Assembly (NCBI GenBank): GCA_964598745.1
Contig: CAZRCV010000001.1
Coordinates: 1 to 63,052 of the forward strand
DNA length: 63,052 bases
From: an uncultured Methanosarcinales archaeon
GTDB taxonomy: Archaea; Nanobdellota; Nanobdellia; Woesearchaeales; GW2011-AR9
Direction: 5' to 3'
The notes under the pieces were generated by a model. The model saw only the letters and a program-made list of their open reading frames with translations, ran no database searches and had not been told where the DNA came from. The first letter of the stretch is position 1. Every line of letters begins with the position of its first letter. Positions 2,317 to 58,745 of the stretch are shown one piece after another. A program made the translations under genes and the position numbers.

Positions 2317-2805
2317 CTAGCCTATCTCTTTGGAAGGTGTAGGCAAATCATCAGCTGACAATGCCCTGCCAACCGTTATCAGCTTAACATTTCCACCAGT
2401 GGAAGAAACCTTTTCTGATGCCTTTTTGCTGCAATACTTGACGATAAATGCTACTTTAACTGTAATTACTCCCGTGCTTAATAACTTATCGTAACCTAGT
2501 TGGTTAAGGTTTACTTGGTAAACATCGTCTTTCTTAGATATTTCTCCTTCTTTTACTAATTGCAATAGGCGATTTTCAGTGAAATAACTTAAATTAATAG
2601 CCTGGCCAGCTCCAAATGACCTACGAGGAATGAATCCATGGCGACCTAACACAATTCCATATTTTTTATGTCCAGCCCGCTTGCCGCTTCCCGCACGCCC
2701 TCTGCCGCCACGGCTACCAGCTCCTCGTCGCTTTTTATGGTGGCCACAACCATGAGAAGTCTGGCCTCGGTATTTCACAACTTTCTTTCTTCTGTTGGTT
2801 ACCAT
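2317..2805 (-). CDS. rpl15: 50S ribosomal protein uL15
   Basis: Gly/Arg-rich N-terminus HGCGHHKKRRGAGSRGGRGRAGSGKRAGHKK. Position between uL30 and secY. Confidence 0.9.
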   Translation of the reverse strand: MVTNRRKKVVKYRGQTSHGCGHHKKRRGAGSRGGRGRAGSGKRAGHKKYGIVLGRHGFIPRRSFGAGQAINLSYFTENRLLQLVKEGEISKKDDVYQVNLNQLGYDKLLSTGVITVKVAFIVKYCSKKASEKVSSTGGNVKLITVGRALSADDLPTPSKEIG

Positions 2806-2843
2806 ATTACTAGTTTTTAGTTAAACGAAGGCGATTCACCTTC

Positions 2844-3302
2844 TTAAAGCATCCTCCTTATTAAATCATTTATTTTGTCTGCGCGATAACCTAAGCCACC
2901 ACCAGAATTAAAAGGTATCTTCATGCCTTTGCGACCAAAACCTTTTCGCGGCGGATTTAACCTAAAATAAGGCTTATATTTCTTGCCCCCAAACTCTAAC
3001 GTTTTATAGGTATATTTTTTCTTAGAATCTTCCGTTGGCCCTTGATACAAAATTCCACGCTGTTCAACTAGTTGCTTAAAGGTGTCATTAGAAATCTCAC
3101 CCCAAGTTACATAATCCTTTACTTTTTTTACCATTCCCCTACTAACAGAATTATTATTAATCACAACACAGTAATTTTTGTGGGTTAGCCTTAACATCTT
3201 CAAAGTATCTTTTATTTTAACTGTAACGCTAACCATCCCACGCACTAACACTACTGCTAACTGGCTGCTGTTTTCATTTGCATTCTTTGTTTTTAATGTC
3301 AT
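2844..3302 (-). CDS. rpl30: 50S ribosomal protein uL30
   Basis: LAVVLVRGMVSV..IKDTLKMLRLTHKN motif. Synteny uS5-uL30-uL15. Confidence 0.9.
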   Translation of the reverse strand: MTLKTKNANENSSQLAVVLVRGMVSVTVKIKDTLKMLRLTHKNYCVVINNNSVSRGMVKKVKDYVTWGEISNDTFKQLVEQRGILYQGPTEDSKKKYTYKTLEFGGKKYKPYFRLNPPRKGFGRKGMKIPFNSGGGLGYRADKINDLIRRML

Positions 3303-16060: not shown

Positions 16061-16930
16061 ATGAGATACAAGTTTGTTAACATTCTTGGAAAGTTCCTCT
16101 TTGATGAAAAATTAAATATCATCTCAGTAAAAGACGATTCTTCTGCTTTGCCGCTGCCGCCAGAAAAAATTCCGGCCATTTTGTCCAGTTTTAAAGACAA
16201 AAAGTACTTCGCCAAATTTTATCAGGAAAACCTCAAATTAACTAGAGAAGCCATCAAAAATGCTGTAAATGAGGATCAACTATTAATGCAAACTATTTGT
16301 AACATCGGAGAACTAGATAAAGTTTCTAATTTGTTAATTAAGAGGCTGAGGGAGTGGTACTCATTATACCTGCCAGAACTATCAGAATTAGTTACAGATC
16401 ACGAACAATTCTTAGAGTTGACTAAACAAACTAAAACTGCTCTTTTAAAGAAATTTAACCTTTCTGAGACAATGGGTGCAGATTTGCTACCGGCCCATTT
16501 AGAACAAATGAAATTATTGTGCCAACAGATAATCAACATTTACGAGTTAAGAAAATCTCATGAAACATACCTCAAAAATATCATGCAAAATCATTGTCCA
16601 AATTTGTTAGAGTTGGCTGGAGCAACCATCGGAGCCAAACTTATTGACTTAGCTAATGGTTTGAAACAATTAGCCCTGCTGCCAGCTTCTACTGTGCAAT
16701 TACTAGGAGCTGAAAAGGCCTTATTTAGGCACATTAAAACTGGATCCCGTTCGCCTAAGCATGGTATCATTATTAACCACCCACTAGTACAAGGTGTAAA
16801 TAGAAGCAAAAAAGGCAAAGCTGCGCGCATGCTAGCTGACAAATTATCCTTGTGCGCTAGATTAGATTACTTTAAAGGCGAACTTAAGGCTAAACAATAT
16901 CGCCAGGAGTTAGAAGAGGCTTTAAGATGA
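16061..16930 (+). CDS. nop5: C/D box sRNP core protein Nop5 (Nop56/58 family), short form
   Basis: Nop domain LLGAEKALFRHIKTGSRSPKHGIIINHPLVQ and KGKAARMLADKLSLCARLDYF. Upstream of fibrillarin, as in most archaea. Confidence 0.85.
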   Translation: MRYKFVNILGKFLFDEKLNIISVKDDSSALPLPPEKIPAILSSFKDKKYFAKFYQENLKLTREAIKNAVNEDQLLMQTICNIGELDKVSNLLIKRLREWYSLYLPELSELVTDHEQFLELTKQTKTALLKKFNLSETMGADLLPAHLEQMKLLCQQIINIYELRKSHETYLKNIMQNHCPNLLELAGATIGAKLIDLANGLKQLALLPASTVQLLGAEKALFRHIKTGSRSPKHGIIINHPLVQGVNRSKKGKAARMLADKLSLCARLDYFKGELKAKQYRQELEEALR

Positions 16931-17103
16931 AAGAGATAGAACTTAAAATCTTAGATATTAATCCTCAAGATGTTAGAAAGAAATTACTAGGAATTGGAGC
17001 GCCAACAGAAAAAGAAGTAGAAGAACTCGTACTAAAATTAGGGTATACTATGAAACAAACTACCAACTTAACGATGGAAGAATTAAGAAAACAAAATGCC
17101 TAA
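16927..17103 (+). CDS. 58-aa mini-ORF between nop5 and fibrillarin. Its N-terminus resembles the start of CYTH (class IV adenylate cyclase/triphosphatase) domains.
   Basis: ATGA overlap with the nop5 stop and 8-nt overlap with the fibrillarin ATG. MKEIELKILDINPQDVRKKLLGIGA resembles the ExExK start of CYTH proteins. The rest is too short to form the domain. Confidence 0.35.
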   Translation: MKEIELKILDINPQDVRKKLLGIGAPTEKEVEELVLKLGYTMKQTTNLTMEELRKQNA

Positions 17104-17770
17104 CCAACTTAGACCACACCAAATCTTTGAAATATACCAAGATAAAGACAGCAAGCGCATTTTTACTAAAAGTTGTTTTCCAGGAAAAGTCCATTTTGAG
17201 GAAAAAATTATAACTGAAGATAGTGCTGAATATCGAGAATTTGATCCACGCAGAAGCAAGCTAGCCGCCATGATCATAAAAGGCTGCACTAATGTGGGAA
17301 TAAGAAAAAATGATGTAGTCCTTTACTTGGGAATTTCTCACGGATACACTGCTTCGTTTATTTCTGATATTATTGGCAAAGAGGGTTTAATTTTCGGCAT
17401 TGACCCTGCACCCAGAGTGATGCGCGATTTAGTGTTTTTGGCTGCAGAACGCCCTAATATTGTACCTATTCTAGCTGACGCTAACCATCCAGAAACATAT
17501 CTTACGCGCGTATCACAGACAGATATTTTATATCAGGATGTGGCTCAACGCAACCAGGAAGATATTTTTATCAGAAATTGTAAATTATTTTTAAAACCTG
17601 GCGGTTATGGATTACTGGCGGTAAAGGCTAAAAGCATCAATATTAAAAAAAGGTCCAAAGATATTTTTATTGAAATCAGAAAGAAACTGGAACAAGAATT
17701 TACAGTTATTGACTATAAAATACTTGAACCATTCGAAAAAGACCACTGTTTAATCATTGTCAAGAAATAG
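17096..17770 (+). CDS. flpA: Fibrillarin-like rRNA/tRNA 2'-O-methyltransferase
   Basis: EYREFDPRRSKLAAMI, VLYLGISHGYTASFISDI, ILYQDVAQRNQ motifs. Confidence 0.9.
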   Translation: MPNQLRPHQIFEIYQDKDSKRIFTKSCFPGKVHFEEKIITEDSAEYREFDPRRSKLAAMIIKGCTNVGIRKNDVVLYLGISHGYTASFISDIIGKEGLIFGIDPAPRVMRDLVFLAAERPNIVPILADANHPETYLTRVSQTDILYQDVAQRNQEDIFIRNCKLFLKPGGYGLLAVKAKSINIKKRSKDIFIEIRKKLEQEFTVIDYKILEPFEKDHCLIIVKK

Positions 17771-41601: not shown

Positions 41602-42834
41602 TTATTTAGAAAAGGTGGTTTGAATCCTGCCTTTATATTGAGATCCCAAAGAAGCAGAACCATAAGATCTGTTCACTCCGCTAGGAAAGAAAAATACTTG
41701 TCCATAGCCAACTACATCGCCGGGATAGATAGTTCTGCCAGTCAACCATTTAGGCTGACGGGAAAAACCACCGCTATATCCTGGATCCACCCAACCATCA
41801 GTAAGGCCCAATAAACCAACATTGGAAATAATCCGATCAGGCCTATCCACTGGAGCATACCTTCCGCCAGAATTTTCTACCACCACATTAGCTAAATTGT
41901 CCCAAAATAGTATGCCCACATGTTCAGACAATTCTAATTGTTCTAGTGTTTCAATAATGACGTGCTCAAAAGGTTTTACAGTATAGCCTCTAGAAATATC
42001 GATTGGTTCCAATAAATCTTCCTTAGCATATTTATCCCTGTCAGAAAAATCTAGGCCTCCAGCAATTTTTTTCATCCTATAAGCAGTTGAACTAGCGTGA
42101 ACAGTAATTTTCCCTTGTCTAGTTGTTAGGCGAGGTGAAACAACCATATATTCTGACTGTTGCAGATAATTAAGATAATGGCTAATGGTTATCTCTACAC
42201 CCATGGGCAAAGCTCTCACCCGCTCGCCTAAGGAATCAATTTTAGGTTTGGTTGAATCTAGTTCAGCTAATCTTTCATCAGCAAAAGGTTTAACTGTAAA
42301 GAATAATTGAGCTAGCCGCTCACCCGGACTAAAATGAAGATCATTACAGCTAAAATTGCCTATTTCTAAAGTGCTGCAGTCTGGGCCAGAAAAAAAGTAA
42401 GCCCCGGAATTCGCCATGAAACAGCCAAGTCGTCTTACACTGCTCCTTAACTCAGCCCTCACCCCAAAAAATTTAGCCTGCCCAGAAGAGGAAGACAATT
42501 GTCCAAAGTTTATTAGTTCAGTTAAATTAATCGTAGAGACATAACCTGATCTTAGAATAGCTTCTCCTGAAAGAAAATGCTGGTATGGGCGACCAACACT
42601 GGCGGAATTAAAAAAATCCCCAGTTAAAGGGTCCACTTCATCAACATCCTTTATTTTTACATCTAAAGATGCTGGTTGAACTCTTTTGCTATCTTTACTT
42701 GATTCCAGAGGCGGAGTAATGGAAATAAGACCAAAATCTATGGCGCTTTGAATTCCCGCATCATTTAACAGCCGCAAAGGAGAACTGCCAGATAAATCTA
42801 AGGTTTTATTTAATGGATTTAAGAAAAATCTCAT
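41602..42834 (-). CDS. dCTP deaminase-like protein with two tandem dUTPase-fold domains
   Basis: N-terminal LLNDAGIQSAIDFGLISITP..VQPASLDVKI, then STLEIGNFS..LHFSPGERLAQLFF (Glu-containing catalytic strand). The second half has GWVDPGYSG..IYPGDVVGYGQVFFF. The ATG at 42834 forms an ATGA overlap with the upstream stop. Confidence 0.6.
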   Translation of the reverse strand: MRFFLNPLNKTLDLSGSSPLRLLNDAGIQSAIDFGLISITPPLESSKDSKRVQPASLDVKIKDVDEVDPLTGDFFNSASVGRPYQHFLSGEAILRSGYVSTINLTELINFGQLSSSSGQAKFFGVRAELRSSVRRLGCFMANSGAYFFSGPDCSTLEIGNFSCNDLHFSPGERLAQLFFTVKPFADERLAELDSTKPKIDSLGERVRALPMGVEITISHYLNYLQQSEYMVVSPRLTTRQGKITVHASSTAYRMKKIAGGLDFSDRDKYAKEDLLEPIDISRGYTVKPFEHVIIETLEQLELSEHVGILFWDNLANVVVENSGGRYAPVDRPDRIISNVGLLGLTDGWVDPGYSGGFSRQPKWLTGRTIYPGDVVGYGQVFFFPSGVNRSYGSASLGSQYKGRIQTTFSK

Positions 42835-43772
42835 TTTTTCTTCATTAACCACACATTGTAACCATTATCCCCTTTTTGAACAAAAATTTTGTTAAGCAAA
42901 CTAAATTTATCCGAAACGAATAATTCCCAACCGGGCCGCCCAATAAACTGCAGTATCCCACCGGGCTTAAGGATGTAATTAATTTGATGATATACTTCGT
43001 TTAATCTTTTCTCATCTTTAGAAGTAACGTAAAAAATGCAAAAATCAAAATAAGATTCATTAAAATTAATATCCAGATCTTCCAAAAAACATTTTTTAAC
43101 CTCTACTTCTGTTTTAGATATCTTAACATTTTTTCTAGCTGCAGTAACGTTAGTAGATCTTTCGTCAAAAGCAAATATCTTTTGTTGAGCAAACTGCCCT
43201 GCCTCGATAGCTAGCGCTGCATCTTTACAAAAGCCGATTAATAATTTGCGATTAGGGGAAAATCCAGACTGCCGTATTAAGTGATAAGCTAAATCTCCCT
43301 TAAATTAAGCCGAATGGGGAAAAACACGATAACTGCGGTTATTGGCCTCTCGAATAGAGTTATCAATCCCCACAAAATATTCTGTTCCATTGTAGAATGC
43401 AATGACCAATAATTTGGGCTGCTTGAGATCTAAAACTGGATTAACAGGGTGTAAGAACCGAAATAGTTTTTCTGCCACTATCTTAGCTGCATTTAACCTA
43501 TTCTCTTGGCCGCTTACTCCTTCTATCAAGATCTTAAAACGAGTATTATTAGTAAATAGGCCTGCATCCAAATTATGGAAATCTAGATTCAACAAATCTT
43601 TTGTTCTGGTTACTGCTACCAGCAGCCTACGCACTGATTGCAGATTTAATTGGTTGTCAGAAATAAACTCCAAAACATTTTTTTCCACCAAGGGATTAAT
43701 ATTTATCTTCTCTTTAATTTCCAATGCCGCTGTAGGTTCAAGTCCGTCGTTGACTAAAGCAAAAAATTTCAT
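42831..43772 (-). pseudogene. THUMP-domain RNA methyltransferase (Trm14/COG0116-like) interrupted by one in-frame TAA
   Basis: ORFs 43305..43772 (THUMP-like, ending ..RSYRVFPHSA*) and 42831..43304 are in the same frame, with a single TAA at 43305-43307. Hand translation continues FKGDLAYHLI..LLIGFCKDAALAIEAG..ILKPGGIL (class I MTase fold). The motif I glycines are degenerate. Confidence 0.6.
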
Positions 43773-43918: not shown

Positions 43919-46546
43919 TCAAACTCCTGGACTAAGTTTATCATCGCTTTGTATCTTCTCTAAATGTTCGTCAACAACTTTTTCACTTTCTGAACCTGAG
44001 CTAGGCTGTGATTGTTCTGAACTAGGCAAATTTAAATTCGTAACAGAATTAGGCTCATCAAAATTACTGCCATCAGTAGGACTAAAACTACCCCGAGTTA
44101 ATTCTAAAGGAACTTCTTCATCAACAACTATTGCTGCGGCAGCCAATTTATCACCTGGGCTTAATCTAATAACGCGGACGCCTTGAGTGGCCCTGCCAAT
44201 TAAAGAAATTTCTGAACAACGAACCCGGATGGCAATTCCCTTTTCAGTAACTAGCATCAGCCCCTCTGAACCATTAACTAATTTAATAGCTTTAACTGGC
44301 CCATTCTTTTCTGTTATTTTGATATTAGTTACGCCTCTTCCACCACGATTGCAAAGCCGATAATCCTCCACTGAAGTTCGTTTTCCATAACCATTTTCTG
44401 TTAAGGTTAACACCTGTTTAGTTTGTTCAGCGGTAATCATGCCTATCACCTCATCCTCTTTGGTTAAGCGAATACCTCTTACTCCGCCTGCGGTACGTCC
44501 CATAGTTCGCACCATTTGTTCATTAAAGCGATTGGCATAACCATTTTTGGTAGCTAAAATTATCTCCTCATTGCCAGAAGTGTATTTAACACTAACTAGT
44601 GTATCCTGATTTTCTAAAGTTATGGCTCTGATTCCTCCTTTTCTAGGATGAGAAAATTCTAGCAGGCTTGTCTTTTTAACTGTGCCGCGCTTGGTAGCCA
44701 TAAACAAATTGCCTTCCTTAAAATTAAGGACTGGAATAACTGCTGAAATTTGTTCGCCTTCTTCTAGTTCCAGTACATTAGAAACATGTTTTCCTTTAGC
44801 TTGCCTGCTACCTTCCGGAAGAGAATAAACTTTCTTCCAATAAACTTGGCCCCTGTCTGTAAAAAATAGTAAATAGTCATGAGTTGAAGTAATGTAAAGG
44901 CTCTTAACAAAATCCTCCTCATTAATTCCCGCTGCTTTAACGCCTTTTCCACCACGGCTTTGTGTTTTATATGTATCAAGGGGAATTCTTTTAATATAAC
45001 CAGAGTTGGTAATGGTAACTGCCATGGTAGCCTCTTCAATCAATTCTTCCATATCGACTTCTTCATCATCGTCATTAGGCACAATCGTCGATCTACGAAC
45101 ATCGCCATAACTTAGTTTTAATTCTGATAACTCTTCCTTGATTAAAGAAAGAACTTTTGCTACAGAACCAAGAATCTCTAAATAATAATTAATCCTTTCT
45201 AGAAGTTCAGTATGTTCCATTTTAATCTTTTCTTGTTCCAAGGAAGCCAACTTTTGCAGCCGCAGTTCTAGGATAGCTTTAACTTGGGTTTCAGATAAAG
45301 AATAATTTTGCATTAAAAACCTGGCTGCGTCCTCCACAGTTCGAGAATTTCTGATTCCGGGAATGACTTGATCTAAATTTGCGAGAGCTACCAATAATCC
45401 TTCCAATACTTGAACCCGCTTCTGGGCTTGCTCTAATTCATATTTAGTTCTTCGGACAATCACTGTTTTACGGTGGTCAATGTGAGCCTCGATAATTTGT
45501 TTAAGGCTTAGAATTTGTGGCTGTGAGTTAACCAAGGCTAACATAATTATTCCAAAAGAAACTTTCAACCGGCTAAATTTATACAGCTGATTTAGTATAA
45601 CTTGCGGATCAGTTTCTTTTTTAAGTTCTATTACAATGCGAATACCTTCCCGATCAGATTCGTCATTAATATTTTTGATCCCATCGACAGTTTTATCCTT
45701 AACCAAATCAGCAATTTGCTTAATTAGCTCCTCTTTGTTTACCTGATAAGGAATTTCAGTGACAATTATCTTATCACTAATTATTTTGCAGACCGACATT
45801 ATTGTAACTTTTCCCCGGCCATTAACATAAGCAGAAATTAAAGGCGAGCCACAACCAACTTCACCGCCAGTAGGGAAATCTGGGCCAGGGATGATTTTGA
45901 TCAATTCTTCAGTATTAATTTCTGGGTTGTCGATAGTAGCGATAATAGCATTACAGACTTCAGAAAGGTTGTGTGGCGGCAGATTAGTAGCCATTCCCAC
46001 GGCAATGCCGGAAGAGCCATTAACCAATAAATTTGGCACTAAAGAAGGCAAAACCTCTGGCTCTTTCAGCGATCCATCAAAATTATCTTTGAAATCAACA
46101 GTGTTCTTGTCTATATCTATTAATATCTCCTCAGCCAATTTTTGCAGTTTGGCCTCAGTGTAACGCATCGCTGCTGCAGAATCTCCATCAATAGACCCAA
46201 AGTTACCCTGTCCCCTAATTAATGGATAACGCAAAGAAAAGTCTTGGGCCATGCGCACTAGTGAATCATAAACTGCCGTATCACCATGAGGATGATACTT
46301 GCCTAAACAGTCTCCAACAATACGAGCGCATTTTTTGAATGGTTTGTTGCTCATAAGCCCCATTTCGTACATACTGTAAAGAATTCTTCTATGCACCGGC
46401 TTCAATCCATCGCGCACATCAGGCAAAGCCCGGCCCACAATCACCGACATGGCATAATTAATATAAGCTGTTTTCATTTCCTCTTCAATTACACGAGAAA
46501 AGATGTGATTGTTTTCAGCAGGAGGATCAGCTGGTAGAGTTGCCAT
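43919..46546 (-). CDS. gyrA: DNA gyrase subunit A
   Basis: [26 protein letters not shown], catalytic-Tyr motif [12 protein letters not shown]-terminal beta-pinwheel repeats and an acidic/Ser tail. Confidence 0.95.
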
Positions 46547-49409: not shown

Positions 49410-49565
49410 GCGGACGTGCCGGAGTGGTCAAACGGGATAGCTTGTTTGGCAATAATGCTAAACGAATCCAAACTCAAGTCCTAGAAGTGAGACTAACGAT
49501 CCTAACGTGCAAAGGAGTCATCTATTGGCTTAGTGCCTACGCAGGTTCGAACCCTGCCGTCCGCA
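49410..49565 (+). tRNA. tRNA-Leu(CAA), class II, with two predicted introns (about 30/31 and 37/38)
   Basis: Hand-folded. Acceptor GCGGACG/CGTCCGC plus A73. D-arm CCG-GAGTGGTCAAA-CGG with G13.A22. Long variable arm TGGCTTAGTGCCTAC. T-arm GCAGG-TTCGAAC-CCTGC. The only CU-NNN-R loop is CTCAAG (49473-49478). Model: stem ATAG[49441-49471]A / TCTAT, with a second intron at 49479-49519. Mature length 84 nt. Boundaries are uncertain. Confidence 0.6.
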
Positions 49566-49598
49566 TACCTTTTTAAATTAATAAACTTTCTTTCTATT

Positions 49599-50933
49599 AT
49601 GTCATTAGATGTCTGCGCCATTGGCGGCTTTTCTAAAACTGAAGGCAACTCTGTAGCGATTAAGGTTGATAATGAAGTAGTAATTCTAGACATGGGATTG
49701 AGTATGGCTGATTATGTTAAATTTCAAGAAGATTTTGAAGACATTAGCAATAGAAATTATAAAACACTGTTGAAAGTTAAGGCTGTGCCCGATTACAGTT
49801 TTATTGATGACTGGAAAGATTTGGTTATAGCCATTATTCCAAGCCACGGGCACTTAGATCACGTTGGAGCGATCCCTTTTGCTGCGCCGTTGTTTCCGAG
49901 GGTACCCATAATTTCTACGCCCTATTCCATTGAAGTGCTTAAAACTATTCTACAAGACGAACAAATTCAATTGCCTAACAAACTAATCACTGTGAACTTA
50001 AACGATAGTTATCAAATTTCTAGTAAAATTACTATCGAAATGGTTAACGTTACTCATTCCATTCCCCATACAGCAATCGTAATAATACATACCCCTTATG
50101 GAAAAATCATGTATGCCAATGATTTTAAGTTGGATGATACTCCCGTCTTGGGTAAAAAACCAAACTATAGCCGCATTAAGGAGCTGGGAGAAGAAGGGAT
50201 AAAATTATTGATTATGAATTGCCTGTATGCCCATGAAAAAAAGAAATGCCCTTCTGAATCCGTAGCCCGGCAGATGTTAAAGGAAGTTATGCTCAGCACA
50301 GAGTCGGATGGAAAAGCCATTGTTGTAACTACTTTTTCTTCACATATCGCTAGGCTAAAAAGTATTATTGAAATGGGCAAGAAACTTAACCGCGCTGTTG
50401 TCTTCTTGGGAAGATCGCTAGATAAATACGTTACTGCTGCTGAAAGATTAGGTTTAGTGCAGTTTAGCCAAGAAGTGGAAATAGAAAAATATAACGACAA
50501 AATAGTTAAAAAACTTAAACAAATCCAAAAGAATGGCCGAGAAAAATATGTCATTGTCTGCACTGGGCACCAAGGCGAGCCGCGAGCAATTTTATCGCGA
50601 ATAGCTAGAAAAGAATTGCCCTTTATTTTTCAGGACAACGATTTAGTTATTTTTAGTTGCACCGTGATACCCGTTGAGGCCAATCTTAAAAATAGAGAGC
50701 AACTGGAACGGTCATTAAGTAAATATAATGTAAGATTGTTCAAAGATGTACACGTTTCTGGCCATGGCGCATTAGAAGACCATCACGAGTTAATTGCCAT
50801 GGTCAAGCCGCAGCACATTATGCCCGTACACGCCGAACCAGCTAAAGCCAAAATGGTTCAAGAGTTAGCTACAAAAATGGGTTATCAAAATACGCACATT
50901 ATGGAAGACGGGAAAAGAATTTCTTTAGACTAA
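49599..50933 (+). CDS. rnj: Archaeal RNase J (beta-CASP metallo-beta-lactamase ribonuclease)
   Basis: HGHLDHVGAIP (HxHxDH), beta-CASP layout, C-terminal VHVSGHG and PVHAEP motifs. The ATG at 49599 was chosen because the track start at 49533 overlaps tRNA-Leu. Confidence 0.8.
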   Translation: MSLDVCAIGGFSKTEGNSVAIKVDNEVVILDMGLSMADYVKFQEDFEDISNRNYKTLLKVKAVPDYSFIDDWKDLVIAIIPSHGHLDHVGAIPFAAPLFPRVPIISTPYSIEVLKTILQDEQIQLPNKLITVNLNDSYQISSKITIEMVNVTHSIPHTAIVIIHTPYGKIMYANDFKLDDTPVLGKKPNYSRIKELGEEGIKLLIMNCLYAHEKKKCPSESVARQMLKEVMLSTESDGKAIVVTTFSSHIARLKSIIEMGKKLNRAVVFLGRSLDKYVTAAERLGLVQFSQEVEIEKYNDKIVKKLKQIQKNGREKYVIVCTGHQGEPRAILSRIARKELPFIFQDNDLVIFSCTVIPVEANLKNREQLERSLSKYNVRLFKDVHVSGHGALEDHHELIAMVKPQHIMPVHAEPAKAKMVQELATKMGYQNTHIMEDGKRISLD

Positions 50934-58224: not shown

Positions 58225-58419
58225 TTATACCGGCATATAAGCCTTCCCTGTAAATTTCTTTTTTGTTTTAGTGCAATACCAGATGCCAGAAGCTAAACGC
58301 TTAACGGAGTTTTTATTACAAAACGGACTTTTGTGGGGTTTGCGCTGTTCTATTTCTATTTTGGCAAACTTAGCTTTTGGCTTTCTGCCATACCGAGCAC
58401 CGAATCGTTTTGTAGGCAT
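58225..58419 (-). CDS. rpl37ae: 50S ribosomal protein eL43 (L37Ae), zinc-free variant
   Basis: TKRFGARYG..IEIEQRK..VKRLASGIWYC..FTGKAY matches eL43. Only one Cys remains in each of the two usual CxxC knuckles. Confidence 0.8.
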   Translation of the reverse strand: MPTKRFGARYGRKPKAKFAKIEIEQRKPHKSPFCNKNSVKRLASGIWYCTKTKKKFTGKAYMPV

Positions 58420-58454
58420 AAATAAATTCCGTCTAAACTTTAATTTAAAGAGTA

Positions 58455-58608
58455 TGGGGCTGCCCGGATTTGAACCGGGGTTCAGTGGTTTTTTTGTTTT
58501 CGGTCATCGCCGAGGGCTCACCCAAACCACTAGTGATAAATTACTCGAAGCGGGAGTGCAGTTCACTTAAATCAGCATCCCGCCATCACCAAGCTACACT
58601 ACAGCCCC
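58455..58608 (-). tRNA. tRNA-Pro(UGG) with two predicted introns (~50 nt in the D-loop, 31 nt at 37/38)
   Basis: Hand-folded on the minus strand. Acceptor GGGGCTG/CAGCCCC plus A73. D-arm GTGT-AGCTTGGT[58587-58538]A-TCAC. Anticodon stem AGTGG/CCACT with loop TTTGGG[58520-58490]A. T-arm CCCGG-TTCAAAT-CCGGG. Mature length 73 nt. Confidence 0.7.
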
Positions 58609-58628
58609 AAAGACATTTATAAACTTAT

Positions 58629-58640: not shown

Positions 58641-58745
58641 GATGTTTCACCAAATTTGTTGGCCCGTATTTGCATCTTAAGAGAACAGGATTTTAGCGAT
58701 TTAAAAGATTTGTGGTTTGAATATTAAGCTTGACAGTTAACTGCG

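Follow-up and report, generated by a model that had tools for sequence, protein, structure and literature searches.

A Woesearchaeota tRNA-Pro(UGG) gene with probable BHB-type introns in the D-loop and the anticodon loop

The gene described here is a complete tRNA-Pro(UGG) gene at 58455..58608 on the minus strand of the window (the whole 63,052-nt stretch of DNA that was analysed). It is interrupted twice, in the D-loop and at position 37/38, and is very probably a functional gene with two protein-spliced BHB-type introns. Its orthologues carry between zero and three inserts at three fixed sites, namely the D-loop directly after G19, 37/38, and the T-loop at 59/60, and the interrupted gene is conserved, with compensatory changes, in over 80 related loci.

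Host and genomic context

The window comes from an assembly entered as an uncultured Methanosarcinales archaeon (GCA_964598745.1, contig CAZRCV010000001.1), which GTDB places in the Woesearchaeales, GW2011-AR9, and has a G+C content of about 37%. The host is a Woesearchaeota archaeon (DPANN, GTDB Nanoarchaeia). The flanking genes are archaeal and include those for L37Ae, prefoldin beta, a DRG-type GTPase and an archaeal TyrRS, with an M24 peptidase upstream. The gene for ribosomal protein L37Ae (58225..58419, minus strand) lies 35 nt downstream of the tRNA, is co-directional with it, and served as the synteny anchor. A scan of GTDB representative genomes for L37Ae gave 24 loci with identities of 57–84%, the best being 84%, and all 24 were labelled as Woesearchaeota, Nanoarchaeia or Nanoarchaeota, or were mislabelled DPANN MAGs. 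The tRNA-Pro(UGG) gene stands directly upstream of L37Ae in 22 of them. An open reading frame listed at 58271..58570 (+) had been dismissed as spurious in an earlier, sequence-only reading of this DNA, rightly so, as it overlaps both the tRNA and the opposite-strand L37Ae gene (58419..58225), whose product is 84% identical to homologues.

Detection and identity of the tRNA

Run on the window with default settings, ARAGORN reported no tRNA, and Rfam gave no match at the gathering threshold, which reflects speed filters and the lack of intron handling rather than the absence of a tRNA. With permissive filters, RF00005 matched exactly 58455-58608(-) over its full length with 36.6 bits (gathering score 29), and the alignment showed insertions of 56 nt in the D-loop and 34 nt in the anticodon loop. 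Once the inserts were removed, ARAGORN called tRNA-Pro(tgg) for both of the products considered, that of 73 nt made with the junctions of the sequence-only reading and that of 75 nt made with BHB-rule junctions. The unconstrained minimum free energy (MFE) structure of the 154-nt precursor body, at -59.7 kcal/mol, contains all four cloverleaf stems, with the inserts folding as separate extensions. The predicted spliced tRNA is a canonical cloverleaf with anticodon UGG, anticodon loop UUUGGGA, G37 and A73; CCA is not encoded. The sequence-only reading had named the gene as a tRNA-Pro(UGG) with two inserts, an identity upheld by the RF00005 score, by ARAGORN after insert removal and by the MFE fold, and the acceptor, D, anticodon and T stems, UGG, G37 and A73 all lie on the minus strand where it had put them.

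Exon 1 (58589..58608, minus strand; tRNA 1-19) supplies the 5' strands of the acceptor and D stems and the D-loop residues AGCUUGG, and is identical or nearly so in all orthologues; its 3' end, the 5' cut after G19, is set by the BHB register. Exon 2 (58521..58540, minus) holds UUUA of the D-loop, the 3' strand of the D-stem, position 26, the 5' strand of the anticodon stem and the loop residues UUUGGG with UGG and G37. Exon 3 (58455..58489, minus) runs from A38 through the 3' strand of the anticodon stem, the variable loop GAAC and the T arm to the 3' strand of the acceptor and A73.

Other isoacceptor names arose when ARAGORN was run in intron mode (-i). Partly spliced constructs were then read as Phe or Ile, and the D-loop-interrupted orthologues L012, L016, L018, L019 and L024 as Val, Gln, Cys, Ser and Ala; these calls were rejected, since they arise from imposing a single anticodon-loop intron on the sequence. 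Such misnaming probably causes annotation errors in DPANN genomes, which may appear to be without a tRNA-Pro(UGG) even though the gene is present, as the tools either miss or misname it.

An orthologous series with zero to three inserts

Seven genome orthologues (L004, L005, L010, L017, L021, L022 and L023) have no inserts. The D-loop insert is found in the window and 13 other genome loci, and the 37/38 insert in the window, L001, L002, L003, L008, L009, L013 and L014. All three inserts occur together in several genome orthologues, and the intron-free copies define the mature sequence. A further 66 loci, 63 of them parsable, came from metagenomes, which were searched with a pattern of conserved tRNA-Pro exon sequences separated by a D-loop insert. 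The position of the D-loop intron is conserved in 14 of 22 genome orthologues and in these 63 parsed loci, and its junctions covary, which answers the question that the sequence-only reading had raised about its persistence in relatives.

A third intron, at 59/60 of the T-loop, does not occur in the window copy. It was assigned to L001, L002, L007, L008, L009, L011, L014 and L015, with L001 and L002 being mis-parsed in the table of T-loop inserts, and also to about 20 metagenomic loci. It is BHB-like, with the pattern [UUCR]AA|...[YGAA]NN|U and three to four of four central pairs at a fixed register. All three introns are combined in about 21 unique sequences.

Conservation of the splicing motif in the D-loop was examined in a single fixed 5' register, with the cut after G19, for every D-loop-interrupted orthologue. 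The complete set of four central pairs, between [GCYU] and [RRGY], forms in 12 of the 14 genome sequences. A perfect 4-bp central helix was present in 49 of 60 unique D-loop-interrupted orthologues compared with 5.4 ± 2.1 (maximum 12) for shuffled inserts; the 3' register was the best of five for each sequence, a choice that favours the model somewhat and was applied identically to the shuffled control. When an adjoining outer helix of 2 bp or more was required as well, 43 of the 60 qualified against a mean of 0.8 after shuffling. In most of the 11 sequences that fall short of the full helix, the only defect is a C.A mismatch at exon position 17, adjoining long outer helices.

The pairing also covaries. 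In a fixed-length junction alignment of 53 distinct sequences, 90.1% of cells were paired, compared with 22–53% when the partner strand was slid by 1–3 columns, and the covariation score of 0.70 was equalled in none of 500 shuffles (0.29 ± 0.02). At exon position 17 the pair with the intron is C-G in 25 sequences and U-A in 20, and the first pair of the outer helix is formed in all 53 sequences by six different pair types.

BHB geometry and boundaries of the D-loop intron

The archaeal splicing motif consists of 4 bp between two 3-nt bulges on opposite strands, each bulge standing 3' of its own strand of the central helix and being cut after its second nucleotide. The cut rule was taken from the canonical 37/38 geometry and checked on L008, which has a textbook strict motif at both sites; precursor positions are given as p, where the window coordinate equals 58609 - p. 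By this rule the D-loop intron of the window extends over 58541..58588 (minus strand; 48 nt), directly after G19. The central helix pairs GCUU of the exon (58591..58594, minus; tRNA 15-17a, p15-18) with GAGU of the intron (58543..58546, minus; p63-66). It is bordered by the 5' bulge GG|U (58588..58590, minus; p G19 G20 | U21), which is GGN in all orthologues, and by the 3' bulge AA|U (58540..58542, minus; p A67 A68 | U69), with the cut placed after the second nucleotide. In the window the latter is effectively a 4-nt bulge, AAUU, with one extra U ahead of the exon helix. On the intron side the outer helix comprises G22-C62 and A23-U61 (in p), followed by a bulged U24 and a 10-bp hairpin. The sequence-only reading had made its D-loop intron depend on a BHB at these junctions, and one is there, with its outer G-C and A-U pairs.

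The hairpin inside the intron (58549..58584, minus) has 10 bp with one bulge and appears in the MFE as well as in constrained folds. It includes the 7-bp helix GGCGGGA/UCCCGCU (58584-58578 / 58555-58549) that had already been noticed in this insert. No close relatives of the window's D-loop intron sequence were found among 90 loci.

The exon-side outer helix of the window is weak, comprising only A14-U followed by a U.U mismatch or 4-nt bulge before the D-stem, and a scan for strict BHBs that required at least 2 bp on this side did not pick up the D-loop site of the window. Strict motifs, exon-side helix included, occur in the orthologues L003, L008, L009, L013, L019 and L020. A shuffled insert satisfied the central- and outer-helix requirement at the register of the window in 149 of 20,000 trials. 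In the MFE the central helix is extended to 6 bp by G19-C62 and G20-U61 (in p), which absorb the 5' bulge, and the canonical BHB conformer lies 2.8 kcal/mol above it (-56.9 vs -59.7).

The boundaries needed a small correction. The sequence-only reading was right that a D-loop intron exists, and had placed it at 58587-58538 (50 nt, position 20/21), leaving a mature D-loop of 9 nt, whereas the BHB register gives 58588-58541 and implies a D-loop of 11 nt, AGCUUGGUUUA. The earlier 3' cut falls 3 nt downstream of the BHB-rule cut, and the refinement as a whole amounts to 2–3 nt at one junction. Splicing by the BHB rule would give the junction GCUUGG|UUUAUCAC and the mature D-loop region GCUUGGUUUAUCAC, while the earlier boundaries predict the junction GCUUGGUAUCAC. 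The 75-nt product of the BHB rule is identical to that predicted for the closest relative, L001, whose D-loop intron is unrelated in sequence.

It is rather unlikely, but the best-placed of the alternatives, that gene and introns are real and that the D-loop intron is nevertheless the 50-nt one (58587-58538, or the equivalent 58588-58539), at 20/21, giving the 9-nt D-loop AGCUUGGUA. Its product is a valid tRNA-Pro by ARAGORN and has a D-loop identical to that of the intron-free L022, but its 3' cut would lie 4–5 nt beyond the central helix, away from the symmetric position imposed by the two active sites of EndA. With the AAUU bulge of the window the exact cut is not set by sequence alone, and here L018 is instructive, as its 3' bulge likewise comprises 4 nt. 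After BHB-rule splicing, L018 equals the intron-free L023 except for one compensatory acceptor-stem pair (two differences in 75 nt), and no alternative placement of its junctions yields the L023-like product, which puts the cut after the second bulge nucleotide. Uninterrupted D-loops of 11 nt in L023, L007, L015 and L004 indicate, moreover, that a loop of this length is usual in this tRNA. The 48-nt version of the intron is preferred, with a predicted 3' cut that is uncertain by 1–3 nt.

The intron at position 37/38

The second intron of the window (58490..58520, minus strand; 31 nt) lies at the canonical position 37/38, as had been proposed from the sequence, and its BHB is of a relaxed kind only. 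For the loop UUUGGGA the central helix would consist of U32-A, U33-A and U34-A together with a G35.A mismatch. The bulges would then be GG|U and AA|A38, and the outer helix one G-C pair; a variant combines a 4-bp UUUG/CAAA helix and a bulge of 4 nt. Both versions are 7–10 kcal/mol worse than competing folds. No canonical BHB was found at 37/38 of the window; strict ones exist at this site in L008 and L009. Relaxed (HBh'/BHL-like) motifs are an accepted substrate class for broad-specificity EndAs (PMC5829648). The UCGG/CCGA hairpin (58513-58510 / 58503-58500) and the A-rich tail described earlier for this insert are both present, and the hairpin also forms in the MFE.

This intron belongs to a family with the pattern UGAGC-Yn-YCGG-YNAUGA-CCGN-(A-rich)-[C/U]AAAAAA, represented by 21 variants at 32 loci (the window, L001, L002, L003, L013 and about 27 metagenomic loci) and, among the sequences searched, found only in the context of tRNA-Pro. 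Its core is invariant, and only the A-rich tail and the run of pyrimidines differ in length. In the same genes the D-loop intron changes freely outside its BHB, and the difference between the two suggests, as a hypothesis, extra determinants where the BHB is weak. The 21 variants fit two folds equally well, one being a YCGG/CCGR hairpin with a CGAUGA loop and the other a K-turn-like structure in which tandem G.A pairs flank a GC/GC mini-hairpin; they contain too little informative variation to separate the two. One could go further and regard the 37/38 intron as a functional RNA module, either a K-turn-like or hairpin protein-binding element that presents the weak BHB, or a stable excised or circular RNA with a role of its own, but this we consider doubtful.

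Two other interpretations of the intron were rejected. A C/D-box guide RNA formed by GAUGA of the intron and CUGA of exon 3 would have a spacing of 18 nt, the 31 nt available are too short for it, and the CUGA is not conserved, being UUGA in many orthologues. Pairing of the intron's GAGC with GCUU of the D-loop showed no covariation when the exon has GCCU.

Upstream elements

A TTTATAAA box (58616..58623, minus strand) occupies -15..-8 relative to the 5' end of the tRNA. Of 65 unique upstream regions from orthologues, 62 have such a box, with no more than one mismatch, whose end lies between -8 and -12. Canonical archaeal TATA-to-start spacing from this box would place the transcription start near position +15 of the tRNA, and a simple promoter model does not account for a conserved TATA-like box that lies only 8 nt ahead of G+1. 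Further upstream there is a conserved BRE/TATA-like box, AACCACAAATCTTTTAAA (58700..58717, minus), a candidate promoter for a tRNA-L37Ae unit. Boxes resembling CTTTTAAA were seen at variable distance in 54 of the 64 loci with enough flanking sequence, the consensus of this distal box being AACCACAAAyCTTTTAAA. Of the two, the distal box is the more plausible promoter.

Function and proposed splicing mechanism

Selection on the exons was assessed with 33 unique spliced sequences, mostly from interrupted genes, in a 75-column cloverleaf alignment. Of its cells 95.7% are paired, against 31–50% when the alignment is slid, and none of 500 shuffles reached the observed values. Eight cloverleaf pairs show changes on both sides, among them 6:67 (U-A/C-G), 29:41 and 30:40 (both with multiple pair types), and 52:62 (G-C/A-U). 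Since these paired and covarying exons come mostly from interrupted genes, the latter must be under selection as tRNAs, which argues against a pseudogene.

From the motif we infer the following course of splicing. Each pair of exon-intron junctions would be placed in two bulges on opposite strands with a 4-bp helix between them, where a homo-oligomeric EndA would cut after the second nucleotide of each bulge, making two cuts per intron. An RtcB-type ligase would then join the exons and probably circularise the introns as well. The first intron would be presented as a near-strict BHB and the second as a relaxed one, and the relaxed motif points to an endonuclease of broadened specificity, such as has been proposed for the DPANN alpha4 enzymes with an L3 loop. 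The expected product is a 75-nt tRNA with the 11-nt D-loop given above, anticodon loop UUUGGGA and A73, to which CCA would be added post-transcriptionally. A Pfam scan found neither EndA nor RtcB among the 40 window ORFs that it covered.

Small DPANN genomes usually have one gene per tRNA isoacceptor. This general pattern speaks against the view, very improbable on the whole, that the locus is a decaying tRNA pseudogene with accumulated insertions and that the working tRNA-Pro(UGG) gene lies at another place in the genome. The analysis covers this genome only within the window, and default tRNA finders miss the gene, both of which would suit a pseudogene; yet the exons are intact and match those of the intron-free orthologues, synteny with L37Ae is kept across the clade, and the interrupted orthologues have compensatory changes both in every stem and in the BHB helix between intron and exon, which indicate selection on the tRNA as well as on its splicing signals. 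Least probable of all is that EndA plays no part and the inserts stay in the RNA as expansions, or that the gene is expressed in pieces from the box at -15..-8 with a start at about +15, since, for all that the TTTATAAA box is unusually near the 5' end of the tRNA in those 62 of 65 upstream regions, a 48-nt insert after G19 would destroy the interaction of G18/G19 with the T-loop, an RNA starting at +15 would lack the 5' strand of the acceptor even though this strand shows perfect conservation and covariation with its partner, and conservation of the BHB has no explanation without EndA cleavage.

Relation to known interrupted tRNAs

The nearest counterpart of a tRNA gene with two protein-spliced introns in these places is the pre-tRNA-Glu(UUC) of Methanopyrus kandleri, which likewise combines a D-loop and a 37/38 intron in one precursor acted on by an archaeal splicing endonuclease, and whose D-loop and canonical introns were both cleaved in vitro (Kaneta et al. 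2018, PMC5829648). The arrangement of motifs is reversed, the M. kandleri D-loop having the relaxed HBh' and its canonical site the strict BHB, whereas in the window the D-loop is near-strict and 37/38 relaxed. The isoacceptors differ (Pro vs Glu), as do the phyla, and the D-loop cut would fall right after G19 in the window compared with 20/21 in M. kandleri, the latter having been deduced from an A21-G37 fragment (PMC5829648).

Multiple introns are also known from Thermoproteales (Sugahara et al. 2007/2008, as summarized in PMC4090602 and PMC4033280). According to these summaries, up to three BHB or relaxed-BHB introns occur per tRNA, at canonical as well as non-canonical sites that include the D-arm (20/21, 22/23) and the T-loop (59/60), and intron presence varies between relatives. 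Positions 20/21, 22/23 and 59/60 are among the intron positions already on record (PMC4090602), and three introns per tRNA is the known maximum (PMC4090602, PMC4033280). Thermoproteales are hyperthermophilic Crenarchaeota, while the window represents a mesophilic, AT-rich DPANN lineage; the endonucleases presumably differ too, being alpha4 with an L3 loop in the one and (alpha-beta)2 with a Crenarchaea-specific loop in the other. Unlike in Thermoproteales, there was no sign, in the loci examined, of the same intron having spread to other tRNAs.

Within its own superphylum, the gene resembles those of Nanoarchaeum equitans, ARMAN-1/2 and Mancarchaeum, where non-canonical and multiple introns are enriched and the specificity of EndA is broadened (PMC3239211, Kaneta et al. 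2018). DPANN lineages, including one surveyed Woesearchaeon, have an L3-loop alpha4 EndA and many disrupted tRNAs (PMC5829648). In contrast to other disrupted tRNAs of DPANN, the window gene is neither split nor permuted.

Multi-intron archaeal tRNAs, D-loop introns and intron-rich tRNA sets of DPANN have thus all been published, and the window adds a further well-supported, ordinary example, which leaves the understanding of how archaeal tRNA introns work unchanged. In the literature examined, no tRNA-Pro family was found described in which introns occupy three fixed sites and the 37/38 intron is conserved in sequence. What goes beyond annotation is the demonstration that tools miss the gene, the series with zero to three introns, and the conserved family of 37/38 introns. 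Specialists may find a use for the orthologous series: with one tRNA followed at one syntenic position in dozens of Woesearchaeota, it offers clean natural material for studying how introns are gained and lost and what substrate rules the DPANN splicing endonuclease obeys.

Other features of the window and of related loci

A second interrupted tRNA lies at 49410-49565 (+) in the window, where RF00005 scores 38.6 bits and shows two insertions, one of about 47 nt and the other of about 46 nt; ARAGORN -i reads it as tRNA-Glu(ttc) with a single 74-nt intron. A TATA-like box ends at -24 from it and a further T/A-rich box at -10, and its 3' end is overlapped by a listed ORF, 49533..50933, for an RNase J-like beta-CASP protein.

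Genes for Nop5 (PF01798) and fibrillarin (PF01269) adjoin at 16061-17770 (+), and their lying side by side indicates that the host has C/D-box RNP machinery. There is a weak C/D-box-like Rfam match, snoU54 (E=1.6), at 44530-44576 (-). A sub-threshold match to the H/ACA snoRNA snR11 (25.2 bits, E=0.037) at 42517-42649 (+) sits within an opposite-strand ORF of 416 aa (41602..42852) and is probably due to chance.

Between tRNA-Pro and L37Ae, L011 (~2670-3000) and L022 (~2905-2975) carry one to three tandem units of about 70 nt, each of which ends in a duplicate of the 3' end of tRNA-Pro (e.g., GGGGTTGATAAGGGGCAAAGCCCCTTATGTCCGAGCAGCCCCA). These units look like att-type remnants of integration into the tRNA, or a small repeat element.
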